From positions 3,712,001 to 3,776,000 of the forward strand of contig OY970166.1 of the NCBI GenBank assembly GCA_963706595.1: a DNA stretch of 64,000 nucleotides, read 5' to 3'. Position numbers and translations under genes: made by a program. Shown piece by piece: positions 23,617 to 63,225 of this stretch (its first letter is position 1; the number at the start of each line of letters is the position of its first letter). This DNA comes from an uncultured cyanobacterium. Lineage in GTDB: Bacteria > Cyanobacteriota > Cyanobacteriia > Cyanobacteriales > Nostocaceae. A model generated the notes under the pieces. It was given only the letters and a program-made list of their open reading frames with translations. It was not told where the DNA came from and did not search any database.

Positions 23617-23717
23617 TATAGCCATCCTATTTGATATATGAATTATCGAACCGCCAAGTCGCCAAGGTCGCCAAGAGAGGAAGTAAAGAGGTTCACAATT
23701 GATTTAGGACTTCTATA
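23617..23717. repeat. TATAGC-ended MITE with internal CGCCAAG repeats
   Basis: tatagccatcct ... aggacttctata; aaccgccaagtcgccaaggtcgccaag inside. Confidence 0.6.
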
Positions 23718-29223: not shown

Positions 29224-29342
29224 TTTTGACATTCTCATTCAAGTGAGGTACAAGCAGTAATAATTAAACGCAGATGGACGCAGATAAACGCAGATAATTG
29301 TGTACTTTATTAGACTGGGAAATGCTATGTGGAGTCGGATCA

Positions 29343-29744
29343 ATGTTCAAAATGGGCGAAGTTTCTCGTAATTTAGGAATCAATCCCCAAACGCTGTATT
29401 TTTACGAGCGCATTGGGCTAATTCCACCTCCCCAGCGTACTGAAGCGGGATATCGACTTTTTAGCCAGTTAGATGTAGATCGACTGGCTTTTATTACCCG
29501 TGCTAAGTCTTTGGGGCTGAGTTTGGATGATATTAAGGAGATTCTATCTTTAAAGGAAGGGAAATTACTCTCCTGTAAAGCTGTTTATGAACGACTCAGC
29601 CAAAAAGTTAAGGATATTGAGGAAAATATATCTCAATTGCGATCGCTCCATGATGAGCTAGTACCTTTGGTTGAGCAATGCAAAACCAACTTAGACCATC
29701 CTGATCCAGCTTATCAATGTATTATTCTTGACGCAGAACTCTAA
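29343..29744 (+). CDS. MerR-family metal-responsive regulator (CueR/ZntR-like)
   Basis: LYFYERIGLI..GYRLF, Cys at the start of the dimer helix, C-terminal C..C. Confidence 0.92.
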   Translation: MFKMGEVSRNLGINPQTLYFYERIGLIPPPQRTEAGYRLFSQLDVDRLAFITRAKSLGLSLDDIKEILSLKEGKLLSCKAVYERLSQKVKDIEENISQLRSLHDELVPLVEQCKTNLDHPDPAYQCIILDAEL

Positions 29745-39855: not shown

Positions 39856-40845
39856 TCATTCTCTAGGAGTCAAATCATCTAAAACTTGCTGAAATTCTGC
39901 TGTAGAAGGAATGGCGATCGCTCTTTTCAGCAGCATTTTCAGTACAGAGGCATCTTCTATGCCATTGACAACAGACAAAATAGAATCTGGTACTTGTCCA
40001 AAGCGCGTTTCGAGAATGTCAATTACATTATCTCGACCCATTTGGATAACTCCTTGTTCAATCCCTTGTTCAATTCCTTGTTCAATTCCTTCTTGTTTTG
40101 CTAATCGTTCAATACTTGTTACGTACCGCATTCTACTGGCCTCCTCGTAACTTCTCAATTCTGTTTGAAAACTCAGTGCTAATTCTTCTGGTAATAACAT
40201 CACCCAGTCAATAAAGCGAAATAATTCCAGAACCTCTTCCCGACTGTAACCCCGTTGAAATAGCTGTCTGACTAAGCTTAACTTCCACTGTAACCGACTT
40301 TCTGGGTTTCGTTGCGTCGCTTTAGTCTTGAGATGCGCCATTACTATTATCCCAAAAGGGTTGGTAGTTTGTTCTAAAACTTCCCACATTTGTTCATAGT
40401 CTAAAAGTTTGGCGATGGGAAACTCTAAACTTACCCGACATCCCCCTAATTGATAGCTGTAGCTGGAAGGTCGCCAATTTGACTGTTCATCGGCTAAAAT
40501 AGCCAAGCTAATCACTGGCTTTTTGTGACGGTCAAACAAGCGGTAATTATAGGTATACATCCGTTCAGGAAATTTGCTGTCATATTGACCTTGAACTTCT
40601 ACATGAACCAATACCCAAGCTTCTTGACCATCAAGTAACCAAACTTTGGCTACTTTATCAACCCAACGCCGACCAATTTCGGCATCAGGTTCTAGTTGTT
40701 GTAATTCTGTATCCAGAAATTCATAAGGGCGTGTCCAGTCGATAGCAGCATAAGCTAGGGGGAAAAAGAATTCTAGAAATCTGGGAAAGTAGAGTTCAAT
40801 TACTTCTTTCCAAGGACTATCGTAATCGGTATATTGTTCTGTCAT
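39856..40845 (-). CDS. Rpn/YhgA-like PD-(D/E)XK nuclease with GIEQ repeats and DUF4351-like tail
   Basis: YDSPWK, D..HVEVQ, RMYTYNYR, (GIEQ)3, RFG helix bundle. Confidence 0.85.
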   Translation of the reverse strand: MTEQYTDYDSPWKEVIELYFPRFLEFFFPLAYAAIDWTRPYEFLDTELQQLEPDAEIGRRWVDKVAKVWLLDGQEAWVLVHVEVQGQYDSKFPERMYTYNYRLFDRHKKPVISLAILADEQSNWRPSSYSYQLGGCRVSLEFPIAKLLDYEQMWEVLEQTTNPFGIIVMAHLKTKATQRNPESRLQWKLSLVRQLFQRGYSREEVLELFRFIDWVMLLPEELALSFQTELRSYEEASRMRYVTSIERLAKQEGIEQGIEQGIEQGVIQMGRDNVIDILETRFGQVPDSILSVVNGIEDASVLKMLLKRAIAIPSTAEFQQVLDDLTPRE

Positions 40846-41030
40846 ATCATGTCAGTTTAATTAGTTACAATTACCACAATCATGTCACCCCACCCCCAAC
40901 CCCTCCTCCGAAGTTCACCCGGAGGGAAACCCTCCTTGTGACTTCTCTCCGCCGCGAGGTGGGGAGATAAAGCAAAAGTTTGGCAGGTTTTCGCGTTTCG
41001 TAAGTATTCAACCAGACTTGATATCATTAG

Positions 41031-42737
41031 CTAAAACAAAAAGTATCTTTGCGCCATTGGTAAAACGGTTGCGGGTTCACAAGTTAGCAATTCACCATCA
41101 GCCCTGACTTGATAGGTTTCTGCATCTACTTCTATATGTGGTAAAGCATCATTTAGCTTCATATCTCGTTTAGTTATTTGACGTGTCCCAGAAACGGCTA
41201 CAGCAGATTTTTTTAAACCTAACTGAGTGGGAATTTCTCTTTCTAAAGCTGCTTGGGAAACAAAGGTTAAAGATGTGGCGTGACGCGCCCCGGCAAAACT
41301 ACCAAACATGGGTCGGCTATGCACAGGTTGGGGTGTGGGAATACTAGCATTAGCATCCCCCATCTGTGACCAAGCAATCATTCCTCCTTTAATGACTATC
41401 TCTGGTTTGACACCAAAAAACGCTGGTCGCCACAAACATAAATCTGCAAGTTTTCCCGCTTCCACTGAACCGACATACTCAGCAATTCCATGAGTAATTG
41501 CTGGGTTTATTGTGTATTTCGCAACATATCTTTTGGCGCGATTATTATCTGCAAGTCCATCGCCGGGAAGGCTTCCGCGTTGCACCTTCATTTTGTGGGA
41601 TGTCTGCCAAGTGCGAATTATCACTTCCCCCACTCGCCCCATTGCTTGGGAATCGGAAGCTATCATACTAAATGCGCCTAAGTCGTGCAGAATGTCTTCC
41701 GCAGCGATGGTTTCCCGGCGAATGCGAGACTCAGCAAAAGCCACATCTTCGGGAATGCTGGAATCGAGGTGATGACAGACCATCAACATATCTAGATGTT
41801 CTTCTAGGGTGTTGACGGTGTAAGGGCGTGTGGGATTAGTGGAAGATGGTAAAACGTTGGCTTGTCCGCAAACTTTTATAATGTCTGGTGCGTGTCCGCC
41901 GCCTGCGCCTTCGGTGTGGTAAGTATGAATAGCCCGATGTTTGAAAGCTGCAATGGTATCTTCCACAAATCCGGCTTCATTCAGAGTATCGGTATGAATC
42001 GCTACTTGCACATCATACTCATCTGCAACACTGAGACAGGTATCAATGGTAGCAGGGGTAGTTCCCCAATCTTCATGTAGTTTTAACCCCATTGCACCGG
42101 CTAGCACTTGTTCGACAATTCCTTGGGGTTGACTGGCGTTACCTTTACCCATAAATCCTAAGTTAACGGGGAAAGCATCAGCCGCTTGTAACATCCGGTG
42201 TATATTCCAGGGACCAGGAGTGCAGGTTGTAGCATTTGTTCCTGTAGCGGGACCAGTACCACCGCCAATCATGGTAGTAATTCCAGAGGCGATCGCCACT
42301 TCAATTTGCTGGGGACAAATAAAATGAATATGGCTATCAATTCCGCCAGCAGTGAGAATCATTCCTTCCCCGGCTAAAGCTTCGGTTCCAGGTCCGATAA
42401 TAATATCTATATTGTCTTGAATATAGGGATTTCCGGCTTTCCCGATTTTGAAAATTTTGCCGTCTTTAATGCCAATATCGGCTTTGACAATACCCCACCA
42501 ATCGAGAATTAAGGCGTTTGTAATCACTAAATCTACTGCGCCATCGGCGTTAGAAATGGGGGATTGTCCCATTCCGTCTCTGATGACTTTACCGCCACCA
42601 AATTTCACTTCGTCGCCGTAGGTGGTGAAGTCTTTTTCTACTTCGATAAATAATTCTGTGTCTGCTAATCGGATGCGATCGCCTACTGTGGGACCGTAGG
42701 TTTCTGCGTAGGCGCGGCGAGAGATTTTGTAAGGCAT
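41031..42737 (-). CDS. ureC: Urease subunit alpha
   Basis: [33 protein letters not shown] 42737 inferred. Confidence 0.98.
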
Positions 42738-42746
42738 AATAAGAAT

Positions 42747-43176
42747 AAGATTTAAACGCAAAGGTACGCGGAATATGGACGAGAATGATTTGAGTGAGGC
42801 TATAATTGGCTGTGCAGTGCAGGTACATACGGCGTTGGGACCGGGTTTGTTGGAGTCAGTTTATGAGCAGTGTTTGTATTATGAATTGAGTAAGAGGTTT
42901 AATGTCAAAAAGCAAGTTCCCTTAACGCTTGTGTACAAACAAGTGGAATTGGATTGCAGTTATCAATTAGATTTAATAGTAGAAGATAAAGTAATCATCG
43001 AAGTCAAATCTGTAGAATATCTCGAACCAATTCACTCAACAGAACTCTTAACCTACCTCAAATTCAGTAATTGTAAACTCGGTATCCTCTTCAACTTTAA
43101 CGTTCTCCACCTCCAAGAAGGAATCAAACGCATAGCCAACAACTTTTAACTCCGCGCCCCTTTGCGTTTAAATCTT
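42747..43176 (+). mobile_element. GxxExxY gene bounded by 28-bp inverted repeats
   Basis: AAGATTTAAACGCAAAGGTACGCGGAAT (42747-42774) vs reverse complement of 43149-43176 AAGATTTAAACGCAAAGGGGCGCGGAGT, 25/28 identical. Confidence 0.65.
42775..43149 (+). CDS. GxxExxY protein (PD-(D/E)XK nuclease fold)
   Basis: [27 protein letters not shown]. Confidence 0.92.
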
Positions 43177-43473
43177 CCCATTAACCCTCCCATTAAAACC
43201 ATAAACTTCACGACTCCCCACCAAACCCACTAAACTCACCTCCTTCTCATCCCCCGGTTCAAACCTCACGGCTGTTCCCGCCGGAATATCAAGACGCATT
43301 CCCCGCGCTTTTTCCCGATCAAAATTCAATGCTGCATTCACTTCATAAAAATGAAAATGTGAACCAACTTGAATCGGGCGATCGCCTGTATTTCCCACCT
43401 GTAACTTAATAACAGAACGACCAGCATTTAACTCAATTTCACCATCTAGCGTAATAATTTCCCCTGGAATCAT
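43168..43473 (-). CDS. ureB: Urease subunit beta
   Basis: [28 protein letters not shown]. Confidence 0.97.
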
Positions 43474-43489
43474 AACAGAACTTCCTGAT

Positions 43490-44146
43490 TTATAAATTTT
43501 CCAAAAATTCCACAAATGGCTTGAAAGCTTGAGGACATAATTCGGCAATATCTTGATATCTAGCATTGCCTAATATTATTGGTGCATCTGCCCGTCCTTT
43601 ATACTTTTTGCCATATTTAATAAAAAGTTGTTCTACAATTTTCTTCGGTGGTTCATTATGATTTTGATCTTCAACTGGTCTTGTCCATGTTATTGGTAAA
43701 GAATCAACACCAAGTACACTGCTTAATTCTGATTTAGCCGCTAAAATTAATGCTTCTAAATCATGTTTAAAGCAAAAAACTCTAAAACGCTCTCTGAGGC
43801 GATTATCATCAATTCCTTTAGACTTTAAAGCTAGATTAAAGTTATTGAGAATACCATTTTCTAGTTCTTCGATGGTTTCATGATGAAAATCTATATTTTG
43901 GGGATATAAGTCCGGCATTATGATTACAATTGTATCAGGATTATTCCGGATAATATTTATTGCTTTGGTTGGTATCTTGGTCAATAAATCTTTCTTAGCA
44001 TGACCTCCTTTATCATTGTCCTTTCCCTTAACAGGAAAAAAATTGATGCTAATACCTTGCTGTAATTTCTCTTCAATTAAAGTTCCTAATAATGCTTCCA
44101 TTGCGAATTTATCAGATGTGCCTTCTACATAAATATTGACTTTCAT
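43490..44146 (-). CDS. DUF4276-like TOPRIM-fold protein
   Basis: [21 protein letters not shown]-terminus; coupled to the upstream ATPase. Confidence 0.8.
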
Positions 44147-45348
44147 GGAAGCCTCTCTAATTCATCGCTACGGTGTAACTGTTCTATTTCATCTGAACCA
44201 AAATCGTCAAGCATATCAATTAAAACTTGAGAATTTCCAGGTTTAATAAACTTTGCTTCTCCATTCTCTTTTCTGAGTACAGCAATTTGAGCAATATCAA
44301 ACTGTGTGAGAAAATAAGAAGCATGAGTAGCTAAAAGAATTTGAGTGCGTTCAGAAGCTTTTTCAAATAAAGCAGCAAGAACAGGTAATGTGCGAGGGTG
44401 TACACCTTGATCTGGTTCATCAATACAAATTAAAGATGGTGGATTTGGCTGTACACAAAGACAAATCCAACAAATTAAACGCAAAATTCCATCTGACAAA
44501 TCAGCAAGACTTAAATCTTGATCAATTCCTGATTCCTGCCAAAAAGCTATGACTTCACCTGGTCCACCACGAGCTTTTACTGTTAAGCCTTTAAAACCAG
44601 GAATTACCGAACGTAAGTGTTGTTGTAGTTGGTCAAAGGCTGATCTATGTTCAGTCATTAAATAATGTAAAACTGAACTTAAATTACCTGCATCTTCCCG
44701 TAATACTGGTTCTTGTTCTAGGGGAACTGATTTACGAATTTTATCATTTGCTATATTGAAGGAACTATAAAATCTCCAATCACGAATATATTCACGTAAG
44801 TTATATAATGCTTCTAGTGATGGATTGGTCATTGCACTCAGCGTTAGTTGATTATGACGCTTTAAAGCAATATCTTGTTGTATGTCTGGTTCAATTTTGA
44901 CTTGTGTAAATCCTCTTTCTCCAGGTTCTCTAATCACACCTTTATTACCTTGAATATCCATATATATGTATGGATTAGTGTATTGATCACTAAAAGGTTT
45001 AGAAGACTCCACACGCTCATAGGATACTTGAGTTCGACCAACCGGACCCATAAGTTCTCCTAAATATCTCATACCAATAGGACGGTCTGTAGCAATTTCT
45101 ATATTCCATTCAAACTTTTGCGGACCAGGTATATGAAAAATTTGTTGCCCGATAGAACCAGGAACGATTTCAGGTGGTATATCTTGGTAAAGACTATCGC
45201 GTAAAAATTTCAGAAATTCAAACAAACTTGATTTCCCAGCACCATTAGCGCCAACAATAATTTCTAGTGGTTCTAATGGGGCTTCAAAATTCCTGAATGG
45301 TCGATAACCTTGAATATTGACATTAGTCAATCTATATAGCGATAGCAT
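44143..45348 (-). CDS. ABC/SMC-like AAA ATPase (AAA_15/AAA_21-type)
   Basis: GANGAGKS, LSDG signature, IDEPD..HP, ATH. Confidence 0.9.
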   Translation of the reverse strand: MLSLYRLTNVNIQGYRPFRNFEAPLEPLEIIVGANGAGKSSLFEFLKFLRDSLYQDIPPEIVPGSIGQQIFHIPGPQKFEWNIEIATDRPIGMRYLGELMGPVGRTQVSYERVESSKPFSDQYTNPYIYMDIQGNKGVIREPGERGFTQVKIEPDIQQDIALKRHNQLTLSAMTNPSLEALYNLREYIRDWRFYSSFNIANDKIRKSVPLEQEPVLREDAGNLSSVLHYLMTEHRSAFDQLQQHLRSVIPGFKGLTVKARGGPGEVIAFWQESGIDQDLSLADLSDGILRLICWICLCVQPNPPSLICIDEPDQGVHPRTLPVLAALFEKASERTQILLATHASYFLTQFDIAQIAVLRKENGEAKFIKPGNSQVLIDMLDDFGSDEIEQLHRSDELERLP

Positions 45349-45400
45349 CTTTTCCCTCTATTTCGCTGACCTTATATTTCTCATATTAAGTTCTTTTTTC

Positions 45401-45703
45401 CTAACGAATCGGATTATGCACTGTCACCAACTTAGTTCCATCAGGAAAAGTTGCTTCTACCTGCACCTCATGCACCATTTCCGGGATACCCTCCATCACA
45501 TCATCTCGTGATAACAAAGTCGTCCCATAACTCATCAATTCTGCGACAGTTTGTCCATCTCTCGCACCCTCCAAAATCGCCGCCGAAATATAGGCGATCG
45601 CCTCTGGATAATTCAACTTCAAACCCCTATTTTTACGCCTCTCAGCCACCAAAGCCGCCGTAAAAATCAATAACTTATCTTTTTCCTGTGGTGTCAATTG
45701 CAT
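45401..45703 (-). CDS. ureA: Urease subunit gamma
   Basis: [31 protein letters not shown]. Confidence 0.98.
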
Positions 45704-45741
45704 TCTTCTCTTCCTCTTGGCGTTCTTGGCTTCTTGGCGGT

Positions 45742-46581
45742 TCAAATCTGCCATACTCTTGGTACACAGCCACCACGATGTAAAAAATCCCCTCGCAGCA
45801 ACTCCCAAACAACCGTAAACCAGTTTCTCACCTCAGAGGTAGAAGCACCACGATATCGACACAAAAATCCATTTTGTAACCGAGTCATACCTACTTCCCC
45901 AGAACCATCCCATAAACTCCGTGCTTTTGCCAAAAATTCCCCAGAAATATCACTTCCCACCCAAACCAAACTACCTGCTATTGGTTGTCCAGCCAAGCCG
46001 TGAGGACTGTGAAAAACTGCTTCGCTACCCGGTAAGTATTGGCGATCAATCCACAAGGGTACGCCTTGCTGCCAAATTTCAGTATGCGATCGCCATTCGC
46101 CCTGTAAAAATTTTTCGCCTCTAGCAGTCCGCCCAAATCGGGTAATTTCCCAACCTAACCAACTACCTCCGGGTGCTAATTCTACCCGTAAATCTTGGCG
46201 ATAAATTGCCCCGTTAAAGACAATTGTTTCTTGGGGTAGCCATTCTAAATAAGCACCAGCATCAACTTGGATCTCAATATTTTGCCTCGCTTGCAGTCCG
46301 TTAGTACCGTATATTTTACTAGCTGCGGCTGTGGTAATTAAAGCTTGGGCATTGGCTTGGAGGTGGATATTAGAGGATAGGCGATCGCCTCCCACTGCAC
46401 CCCCAGCAGTGTGTAATATAACACTATGACAAATTTTTGCACCCTCTGGATAAAAAGGCCGTTGTACCTTCAGGGGGGCTTGATTGTGACTGTAAATTAA
46501 CTGGGTACTATTGAGGCGATCAGCATAAACTAAATTAAGTTTGCCATGCCAACTTTTATCTATTGGACTGTTAACAATCAT
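45742..46581 (-). CDS. ureD: Urease accessory protein UreD
   Basis: [29 protein letters not shown]. Confidence 0.95.
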
Positions 46582-46808
46582 TAATAAATGGATAAAATTT
46601 ATCTAGATTTAACTTTAACATTCAAAATCTCAACATTATTAAATTTGTAGAAACATTGTCAAAAATACTTATTCGATGAGATAGTTATTTAGGGCTTACC
46701 TGTTTATATTCAAGATTTTGACGGTTTTCGCATCTCAAATTCGGATACCCAAAATTCTGGTATCCTATTTCAGGGTTACTCATCACTTTCACTAATTTAC
46801 GAAAGCTT

Positions 46809-47678
46809 ATGAACCAAATAGTTCGCTTTGTAATCATTGCTCTGGTTGCGTTAATTTGCACGTCCTCAATCCTATTTCAAACAATGCAATCAGGATTAAC
46901 TCTACCAAAATCAGCGATTGATCTGCCAACCAGTGTAGATATCGCTCAGAACATTGATTTTAAAAGGCACTTTCAAGAATTAGGAGTTGAGGGTTCAATT
47001 CTGATCTATGACTTGAACAACGATCGCATCTTTGAAAACAATCCCCAACGTAATGCAACCGCTTTTTTACCTGCATCGACATTTAAGATTCTCAATTCAT
47101 TAATTGCGTTAGAAAGTGGGGTGATTTCAGATGAAATTGCAGTTCTAACATGGGACGGTATTCAAAGGAGTATTCCAGGGTGGAACCGAGACTTGAATAT
47201 GAAAGAAGCATTCAAGGTTTCTGCTGTTTGGTTTTACCAAATTCTAGCTCGTCGAATTGGGTATGAGCAAATGCAAAAATGGGTAATGGAAGCTGGATAC
47301 GGCAACCAAAAAATTGGTAGTGAAGATGATATTGATAAATTTTGGTTAGCGGGAGAACTGCGAATCACACCTCAAGAGCAAATTCAATTTCTCCGTCGTC
47401 TCTACAATAACGACTTACCTTTCTCCAAGCGATCGCTCGCCATTGTCAAAGACATCATGGTAAACGAGCAAACTCCAGACTACACAATCAGAGGTAAAAC
47501 AGGCTGGCTGGGGTTTGAGGACAACGTAACGCCGAAAATTGGCTGGTATGTGGGTTATTTGGAGAAGGGAAAGAATGTTTACTTTTTCACCACTAACATC
47601 GACATTCGTAATCAGAAAGATCCATCGGCTCGAATAGAGTTAACACGCCGTTGTTTTAAAGAACTTGCCGTACTGTAG
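46809..47678 (+). CDS. Class D beta-lactamase (OXA-like)
   Basis: Signal peptide, PASTFK, SAV, YGN, FWL, KTG motifs. Confidence 0.9.
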   Translation: MNQIVRFVIIALVALICTSSILFQTMQSGLTLPKSAIDLPTSVDIAQNIDFKRHFQELGVEGSILIYDLNNDRIFENNPQRNATAFLPASTFKILNSLIALESGVISDEIAVLTWDGIQRSIPGWNRDLNMKEAFKVSAVWFYQILARRIGYEQMQKWVMEAGYGNQKIGSEDDIDKFWLAGELRITPQEQIQFLRRLYNNDLPFSKRSLAIVKDIMVNEQTPDYTIRGKTGWLGFEDNVTPKIGWYVGYLEKGKNVYFFTTNIDIRNQKDPSARIELTRRCFKELAVL

Positions 47679-63020: not shown

Positions 63021-63225
63021 ATTTAAGCATTTTGTATTTCTTCTGATTGTTTAAGGAAAAAAATACTGCTGATACTATACGATGTATAGCATTTTCTAAT
63101 CTGCTGAGTTACACCTAATTAATTCTTCTCTCTGCGCCCTCTGCGCCTCTGCGGTTCGATTTCCAAAAAAAACAGCCACCTCCATTAGGAAGCAGCTATT
63201 TTTCAATTTATGTGGCTATAGACTA

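Follow-up and report, generated by a model that had tools for sequence, protein, structure and literature searches.

A predicted PD-(D/E)XK nuclease gene of the GxxExxY family between inverted arms of a genome-wide repeat family in a cyanobacterial urease operon

The closest described counterparts of a small enzyme gene framed by repeats are the RAYT/REP(IN) systems and the TIRtrons (PMC3116915, PMC5581495, PMC3733652, PMC6006769), with which the following comparison is made as far as the accessible portions of these papers describe them. The GxxExxY genes considered here resemble the RAYT/REP systems in being small enzyme genes with one copy per type that are chromosomal and mostly vertically inherited, in lying between inverted copies of an abundant extragenic repeat, and in the coexistence of several types in a genome, every one with a repeat of its own, alongside orphan repeats. 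They differ in that the predicted fold of the GxxExxY enzyme is PD-(D/E)XK, whereas the RAYTs have an HUH/Y1 transposase fold; in that their repeats are tandem arrays of 7-bp words, spaced 8–12 bp apart depending on the clade, rather than GTAG-footed hairpins; and in that the arrays of class A, to which the locus described below belongs, are mostly singlets in its genome (2 tail-to-tail doublets among 51 arrays), whereas a doublet is the unit in RAYT systems (REPIN). By the criteria of PMC5581495, as set out in its accessible portion, the profile of the GxxExxY genes is that of RAYTs and not that of insertion sequences. The system works like RAYT/REP without being a member of it, given its different enzyme and its non-hairpin singlet arrays. 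With the insertion sequences and MITEs of cyanobacteria, Nezha and others (PMC3184786, in the part available), it shares inverted ends and dispersed gene-less copies; unlike them, it has no DDE transposase, no target duplication was seen and no recent multicopy spread, and it lacks fixed termini, orthologues differing in the length of their arms and in their outer ends. PF13366 is listed as 'Unknown' and with 'multiple transfers' in the accessible portion of PMC3424549, the mention of GxxExxY in that of 10.1101/2021.01.26.428298 is incidental, and the gene-repeat pairing is not described in the available parts of PMC3733652, PMC3116915, PMC3184786, PMC6006769 and PMC4390886. Our literature search, which did not extend to the survey of Nostoc small dispersed repeats, returned no paper linking GxxExxY/PF13366 to flanking arms, cognate repeats or mobility.

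The window, that is, the whole 64,000-nucleotide stretch analyzed, is part of a 5.57-Mb single-contig genome (hereinafter G000) whose best named protein matches, among the matches listed, come from Nodularia and other Nostocales. As the initial annotation had stated, a GxxExxY gene (42775..43149, + strand; 124 aa, predicted PD-(D/E)XK fold) lies here antisense between ureB (43168..43473, −) on its right and ureC (41031..42737, −) on its left. Its left arm (42747..42774, +), a shortened class-A repeat array with the half-sites CGCAAAG and CGCGGAA 10 bp apart, does end at the base preceding the ATG at 42775, and its right arm (43149..43176, −), a shortened class-A array likewise with two half-sites, does begin in the GxxExxY stop, the last base of that TAA at 43149 being the first base of the arm. 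The two arms are identical at 25 of 28 positions, and the right one holds the final codons of ureB, AAG ATT TAA, the ureB stop being the TAA of the arm head; ureC starts 9 bp outside the left arm. The description of the locus as a 430-bp unit with 28-bp arms gave its coordinates correctly; however, the length of 28 bp is peculiar to the window copy, as the congeneric arms are 22 bp longer on each side. Orthologues have four half-sites in the left arm against two in the window copy and a spacer of 474 bp in the congeneric genomes against 430 bp, because each arm of the window copy has lost one 22-bp unit, a loss also seen in the sequencing-run contigs. The outer AAGATT match between the arms is found only in the genus of the window genome and therefore arose after the insertion. 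Precise 28-bp termini are ruled out by the longer arms and differing outer ends of the orthologues, and the symmetric 22-bp loss was set aside as proof of arm pairing in view of one-sided contractions at other loci (L088, L089, L090). Within the urease mRNA, the complete cassette can form a pairing between its arms (folding z −2.6), and a promoter scan of 42400–43300 yielded no site. No rRNA match was found at 41000–47000 of the window, and, unlike the ORF-bearing intervening sequences of rRNA genes, the cassette sits between ureB and ureC and not inside an rRNA gene. A match to Rfam RF02514 (5_ureB_sRNA; 42296–42583, +; 106.5 bits) lies antisense inside ureC, a short distance 5' of the GxxExxY gene and on its strand; conserved coding sequence probably accounts for it. 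Elsewhere in the operon, an AAA ATPase (PF13304) gene and a DUF4276 gene (43490–45348, −) lie between ureA and ureB and match PADLOC HEC-01A (E 7e-57) and HEC-01B (E 2e-9), making them a candidate defense pair inserted in the urease operon; downstream of ureC, 39856–40845 (−) gives a weak match to an Rpn/YhgA-like nuclease (TIGR01784, E 6e-4, below the cut-off).

The protein is a plain member of the GxxExxY/PDDEXK_3 family, matching PF13366 (E 2e-39; 135 bits, cut-off 22) and TIGR04256 (E 9e-41; 138.9 bits, cut-off 35), with G24, E27 and Y30 as the motif residues. These are the sole Pfam/NCBIfam matches in the unit, in keeping with the earlier statement that it has no DDE or HUH gene. For the fold, which the initial annotation had given as PD-(D/E)XK for the family, a structure was predicted with the orthologue P0004 as first row (pLDDT 92.5); the top structural matches of this model are Cas4 (Foldseek E 1.6e-3) and a restriction-endonuclease-like protein, it matches a viral PD-(D/E)XK nuclease with a Foldseek E-value of 1.9e-6, and the VIA comparison gave Z 8.1–8.3 and rmsd 3.1–4.3 over ~100 aligned residues. 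The GxxExxY protein is thus predicted to be a minimal Cas4/RecB-like PD-(D/E)XK domain. Searches with it against PDB sequences and PADLOC returned no match. Like the Cas4/RecB nucleases (PDB 4r5q, 4ic1; PMC2475608, in the part available), the model combines this fold with a D-ExK center and a family-wide QxxxY motif; unlike Cas4, in which four conserved cysteines bind an Fe-S cluster (PMC4176176, in the part available), the window protein has only 124 residues, no four-cysteine cluster, no CRISPR context and E for the Q. Cysteine stays below 85% in every column of the 217 homologues. The catalytic residues D66, E76 and K78 are intact in the window copy, whose reading frame is open, and are kept in 216/217, 216/217 and 215/217 homologues, respectively. 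At the QxxxY motif, the E that had been noticed in place of Q is indeed unusual: the window copy has E90xxxY94, whereas 214 of 217 other homologues have Q and one has E. E90 is common only to the window copy and a sister allele (P0002, with 85% identity and 11 member sequences), and is therefore not a read error; R64Q, P51T and L104I of the window copy also fall at conserved columns. The dN of the window copy against its orthologues is ~0.10 (dN/dS 0.32–0.43), compared with 0.003–0.035 among the orthologues (dN/dS 0.02–0.32), and in a quick tree its terminal branch measures 0.24 against ~0.01–0.05 for most. In EcoR124I, substitutions of the corresponding motif residue slowed cleavage (Q179A) or abolished it (Q179K), according to the accessible portion of PMC2475608. 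The suspicion that this copy may be impaired is supported by Q90E, R64Q and the raised dN; judged from these substitutions, the window copy is probably weakened, with E90 as a putative contributor.

The initial annotation had further proposed a precisely packaged, autonomous mobile element, and had named empty ureB-ureC alleles as a test of it. The gene is present at the same site and in the same orientation in 6 of 10 other congeneric genomes (77–81% amino acid identity) and also in five genomes of other genera; it occurs in 8 of the 80 ureB loci of the genome collection, and 7 of these 8 loci also include ureC. When 110 ure loci were surveyed and the 33 without both genes in the locus removed, the remaining 77 comprised 18 with the gene, 8 with a lone class-A arm, 7 with an arm of another class and 44 with nothing matching. 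The dS of the window gene against six congeneric orthologues (0.23–0.33) is like that of ureC (0.21–0.28). By these sequence comparisons, the cassette is old and inherited in place, and it predates the split of several cyanobacterial genera. The congeneric short alleles L093 and L094 retain pieces of the arms and are read as deletion scars; they were rejected as pre-insertion sites, as the arm pieces are kept and the gene stands at this site outside the genus too. In L009, one arm and a remnant of the end of the gene are left, and a clean empty ureB-ureC site was not found. Among the six congeneric orthologues themselves (L082–L087), the dS of the gene (0.07–0.23) is mostly below that of ureC (0.13–0.32), albeit over few sites, which may reflect exchange of the cassette between species.

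For an autonomous minimal transposon that excises and inserts as a unit by precise 28-bp ends, one can cite the tight packaging, the scatter of 166 GxxExxY loci over 61 neighborhoods (clade A over 5), and two pairs of similar within-genome paralogues. The more similar pair (94% identical, in G096) has unrelated flanks, and its likeness stops at the arm heads; the other (~90%, in G190) was weakened as a clean duplication, since the downstream gene is also in common. These are the best (94.1% and 89.8%) of 101 within-genome pairs, from 153 genes in 87 genomes, none of which reaches 95% identity. The family is nearly absent from plasmids (6 of 72,556 records) and phages (0 of 50,697 records), and the constancy of site and orientation across genera, the ureC-like dS, the variable arm length and outer ends, and the arm pieces kept by L093 and L094 all tell against such a transposon. 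The earlier observation that no target duplication is evident holds throughout: none was seen in any comparison, with no true pre-insertion allele among those compared. In particular, neither a target duplication nor a clean empty site was found at the solo-array sites of six G000 stretches or at three candidate recent gene insertions, and the orthologous comparisons contained no new class-A array insertion with a clean empty site. Sequencing-run contigs, which represent relatives only (share of words ≤0.30), contained no joint of an excising cassette, and a single 'skip' in them came from a doublet elsewhere with other flanks and was not cassette excision. We hold this reading to be highly improbable in general; for the ureB-ureC locus, it is largely refuted, and the claim of a recently mobile element is not supported, given the age of the insertion and the lack of near-identical pairs. 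A separate observation concerns a subclade of clade B1 (L172, L375, L504, L505, L506, L514) that adjoins different host genes; 4 of its 6 loci have a long downstream ORF of ~450–470 codons, similar in at least three, as if this were part of a small mobile island.

Turning to the family at large, TIGR04256 has matches in 72 of the 151 genomes sampled at the level of the order, in 100 of 121 at that of the family and in all 11 at that of the genus, with 1–5 per genome. That other GxxExxY genes would have flanking inverted arms was an expectation of the initial annotation, and such arms stand above the shuffle null at 124 of 165 loci: they beat the best shuffle at 28/30 and 46/60 cyanobacterial loci, and at 50/75 metagenome loci (GC 0.31–0.68; 80 loci, of which 5 were dropped for short flanks), leaving 41 loci without arms above the null. 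A quick tree was built from 105 proteins (125 columns) and has many weak forks; on it, seven arm classes, defined after the loci had been inspected, follow the protein clades with 10 changes against 46–59 in shuffled data, compared with 44 changes against 57–64 for host family on the same tree. Of the 60 loci with a class call for each arm, 59 have two arms of one class. In 89 of 105 loci, the best-matching right arm from any other locus belongs to a gene of the same clade, and gene fragments retain the cognate arm. The reading frame meets the arms in different ways: in clade A, the left arm ends before the ATG, unlike in B-type clades (L140, L115, L506, G000:C1:4631949), where it lies in frame behind the ATG and would encode an N-terminal extension; in a metagenome subclade (L226, L231, L233, L237, L246, L274, L277, L284), the gene ends inside a bare arm head, the right arm consisting of a few bases that supply the stop codon.

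The abundance of the repeats also follows the presence of the gene, a correlation for which the initial annotation had asked. Repeats of classes A, D, B1 and B2 were counted across the 151 genomes, with broken-gene genomes set aside, and carriers of an intact gene are usually rich in the cognate repeat: at least 10 matches were found in 8/10 clade-A carriers against 13/138 others for class A, 8/8 against 22/141 for class D, 21/24 against 12/125 for class B1, and 8/10 against 18/139 for class B2, counts whose significance is overstated, as they come from related and hence not independent genomes. Two divergent clade-A carriers have 4 and 0 class-A matches. Conversely, orphan repeats occur in genomes without any GxxExxY match (121–223 class-D matches in G043, G098 and G119; 61 class-A matches in G026) and in G000 itself, with 55 class-D and 19 class-B2 matches and no gene of those clades; 15 of 79 gene-less genomes have at least 10 matches of some class. 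Together, the arms at most loci, the arm class following the clade and the repeat abundance following the gene support the analogy to RAYT/REP drawn in the initial annotation. Given that every branch of the family comes with a repeat of its own, it is likely that the enzyme cuts at its repeats and spreads them; since gene and arms are physically linked, their co-inheritance is no proof of recognition.

In G000, the arm pattern has 87 matches, against 0, 0 and 1 in three shuffles, which collapse into 51 class-A arrays. A full array consists of a T-rich head followed by four CGCDRAG words spaced 10-12-10, and four words are present in 38 of the 51. Arrays are mostly single, and the single ones show no folding tendency on the purine-rich strand (mean z +0.2) and a weak one on the other (z −1.7); the GTAG foot is absent from the base counts of class-A arrays. 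The spacing of words is 10/12 bp in class A, 10 in D and 8–9 in A2, B1 and B2, a difference between classes that rules out a universal helical-turn spacing. Class-C words are reversed in polarity and lie in long tandem arrays with periods of ~73 and ~66 bp (G000:C1:2884958-2885665, 3109392-3110315). Small dispersed repeats (SDR) of Nostoc were reportedly described by Elhai in 2008, and the class-A array may already be catalogued as such a family. Altogether, the genome has ~280 arrays of six classes and two further GxxExxY genes (42% and 34% identical to the window protein), each framed by a different repeat class. The window itself contains gene-less arrays of class B1 at 23649..23676 (+), the cognate gene of which lies elsewhere (G000:C1:4632012), and at 63129..63156 (−), as well as a class-D array at approximately 29269..29297 (+), in a genome with no clade-D gene. 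This last array is inside a MITE-like unit of ~107 bp (window ~29240–29350) that recurs at G000:C1:1145655-1145761 and in many 94–98% identical copies in congeneric genomes; other MITE-like units carry B1 or B2 arrays.

Such units are one ground for regarding the gene as a passive passenger, trapped between two copies of repeats that spread by other means, such as MITE transposases, RAYTs, slippage or recombination. Flanks are repeated in G000 for 17 of 33 class-D and 25 of 82 class-B1 arrays, which indicates hitchhiking on MITE-like units, and the existence of orphan repeats where the cognate gene is missing would fit the same account. So would other genes so framed in G000: some ordinary genes lie between two converging arrays, and RAYT-like and IS200-like genes have flanking repeats of their own. 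The small genes with such inverted repeats (G000:C1:4347985, 4904574, 329111, 4762438) are, judging from their N-terminal sequence, a four-helix-bundle-like gene in short tandem repeats, two RAYT-like genes and one IS200-like gene. However, the passenger account would need about seven separate captures, each clade with its own class on both sides, in many lineages; all three GxxExxY genes of G000 are in the top 25 of 4096 ORFs by flanking inverted-repeat score (ranks 15, 21 and 25); a repeated flank occurs at the head of just 1 of the 51 class-A arrays, and in 11 of them when both sides are considered; and the fragments of decayed genes keep the cognate arm. We therefore regard it as unlikely.

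The distribution of the arrays also bears on an alternative in which the protein is a tool of the host, binding or processing arrays for the cell (self-DNA marking, entry of recombination or repair, control of gene ends, or self-regulation through the left arm), with spreading as a secondary matter. Although the genome is 76% coding, none of the 51 class-A arrays lies in an ORF (of at least 100 aa), and 16 of the 51 lie no more than 30 nt past a same-strand stop, compared with 6% of 5118 control words. Across 14 sites, class-A arrays are kept while their flanks drift in 35–38 of 42 orthologous comparisons, the higher figure being obtained by a loose pattern and including three that look like another class or could be seen incompletely. 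Some gene sites are very old, with 31 loci at valS, 19 at ureB-ureC and 17 at G000:C1:2657650, and the congeneric orthologues of the window gene are under purifying selection. Against a role in the service of the cell stands the frequent loss and decay of the gene, seen in deletion scars, in fragments and in the 79 of the 151 order-level genomes that have no match. Up to five unrelated clades also coexist in a single genome, every one with repeats of its own, a pattern closer to selfish turnover than to a single host function. We consider this explanation, too, decidedly unlikely.

Between orthologous arrays, the number of units varies and the repeat class is swapped between conserved flanks, and in some genomes one arm of the valS-side gene has received a copy of the other arm's flank. 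At G000:C1:2657650, eight congeneric genomes show three alleles, 69–74% identical, in both orientations; a 97.9% identical gene has opposite orientations in G010 and G001, the point of switching lying within arms that themselves stay in place, and in G000 only the two arms remain. Inserts of ~25 nt with internal palindromes were also seen in relatives at a fixed position inside array words (L381, L382, L427, L438, L449, L518, L526); they resemble the SDR of Nostoc and fall within their size range.

The explanation that we favor, with a little better than even confidence, is that the enzymes of the family bind and cut their own class of repeat and that host repair then copies, swaps, inverts or deletes DNA, the window copy probably being a weakened representative. 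On this view, the locus is a long-established cassette passed on with the chromosome, its single Cas4/RecB-like nuclease gene standing between inverted arms of a genome-wide repeat family. The enzyme would bind 7-bp half-sites sequence-specifically (in class A, the four CGCDRAG words), nick or cut near the T-rich head, and leave it to host recombination and repair to join the ends with another array as the source; the whole cassette would rarely arrive at new sites, there to become a domesticated single-copy gene, as RAYTs do. PD-(D/E)XK domains hydrolyze DNA without a covalent intermediate: they cut and do not join. For this reason, we prefer array recognition, a nick or break and host repair as the route, which predicts ragged ends and no target duplication. 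The proposed route fits the ragged ends, the lack of duplication, the class swaps, the copying of flanks, the inversion and the exchange of alleles; none of these needs the enzyme. Against this explanation, inversion and deletion between inverted repeats are possible without a dedicated enzyme; class-A arrays are mostly static and persist in G000 despite its damaged-looking clade-A gene; and orphan repeat families are common, with D and B1 arrays often in MITE-like units.

We tentatively extend this to a wider proposal, which we rate as possible though somewhat short of even: that GxxExxY proteins drive repeat-and-enzyme systems of a second class that extends across bacteria, in which a nuclease of ~120 residues reads a clade-specific array of 7-bp words and cuts, and host repair seeds new arrays and moves or exchanges the gene without transposase or recombinase. 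The present locus contributes a code linking clade to repeat across cyanobacteria, cases of inversion in place and of exchanged alleles at the arms, and a naturally decaying copy; it would itself be a poor reagent, and intact congeneric orthologues from the same site are preferable. The very large family PF13366 has no assigned function, and the genomes of filamentous cyanobacteria hold hundreds of unexplained intergenic repeats; the clade-to-repeat code names a candidate substrate for each clade, by which both questions become testable. If the enzyme drives the repeats, the system would be a counterpart of RAYT/REP built on unrelated chemistry; if the wider proposal is true, hundreds of intergenic repeats per cyanobacterial genome would be explained, and the family would offer a natural panel of orthogonal pairs of mini-nucleases and targets.
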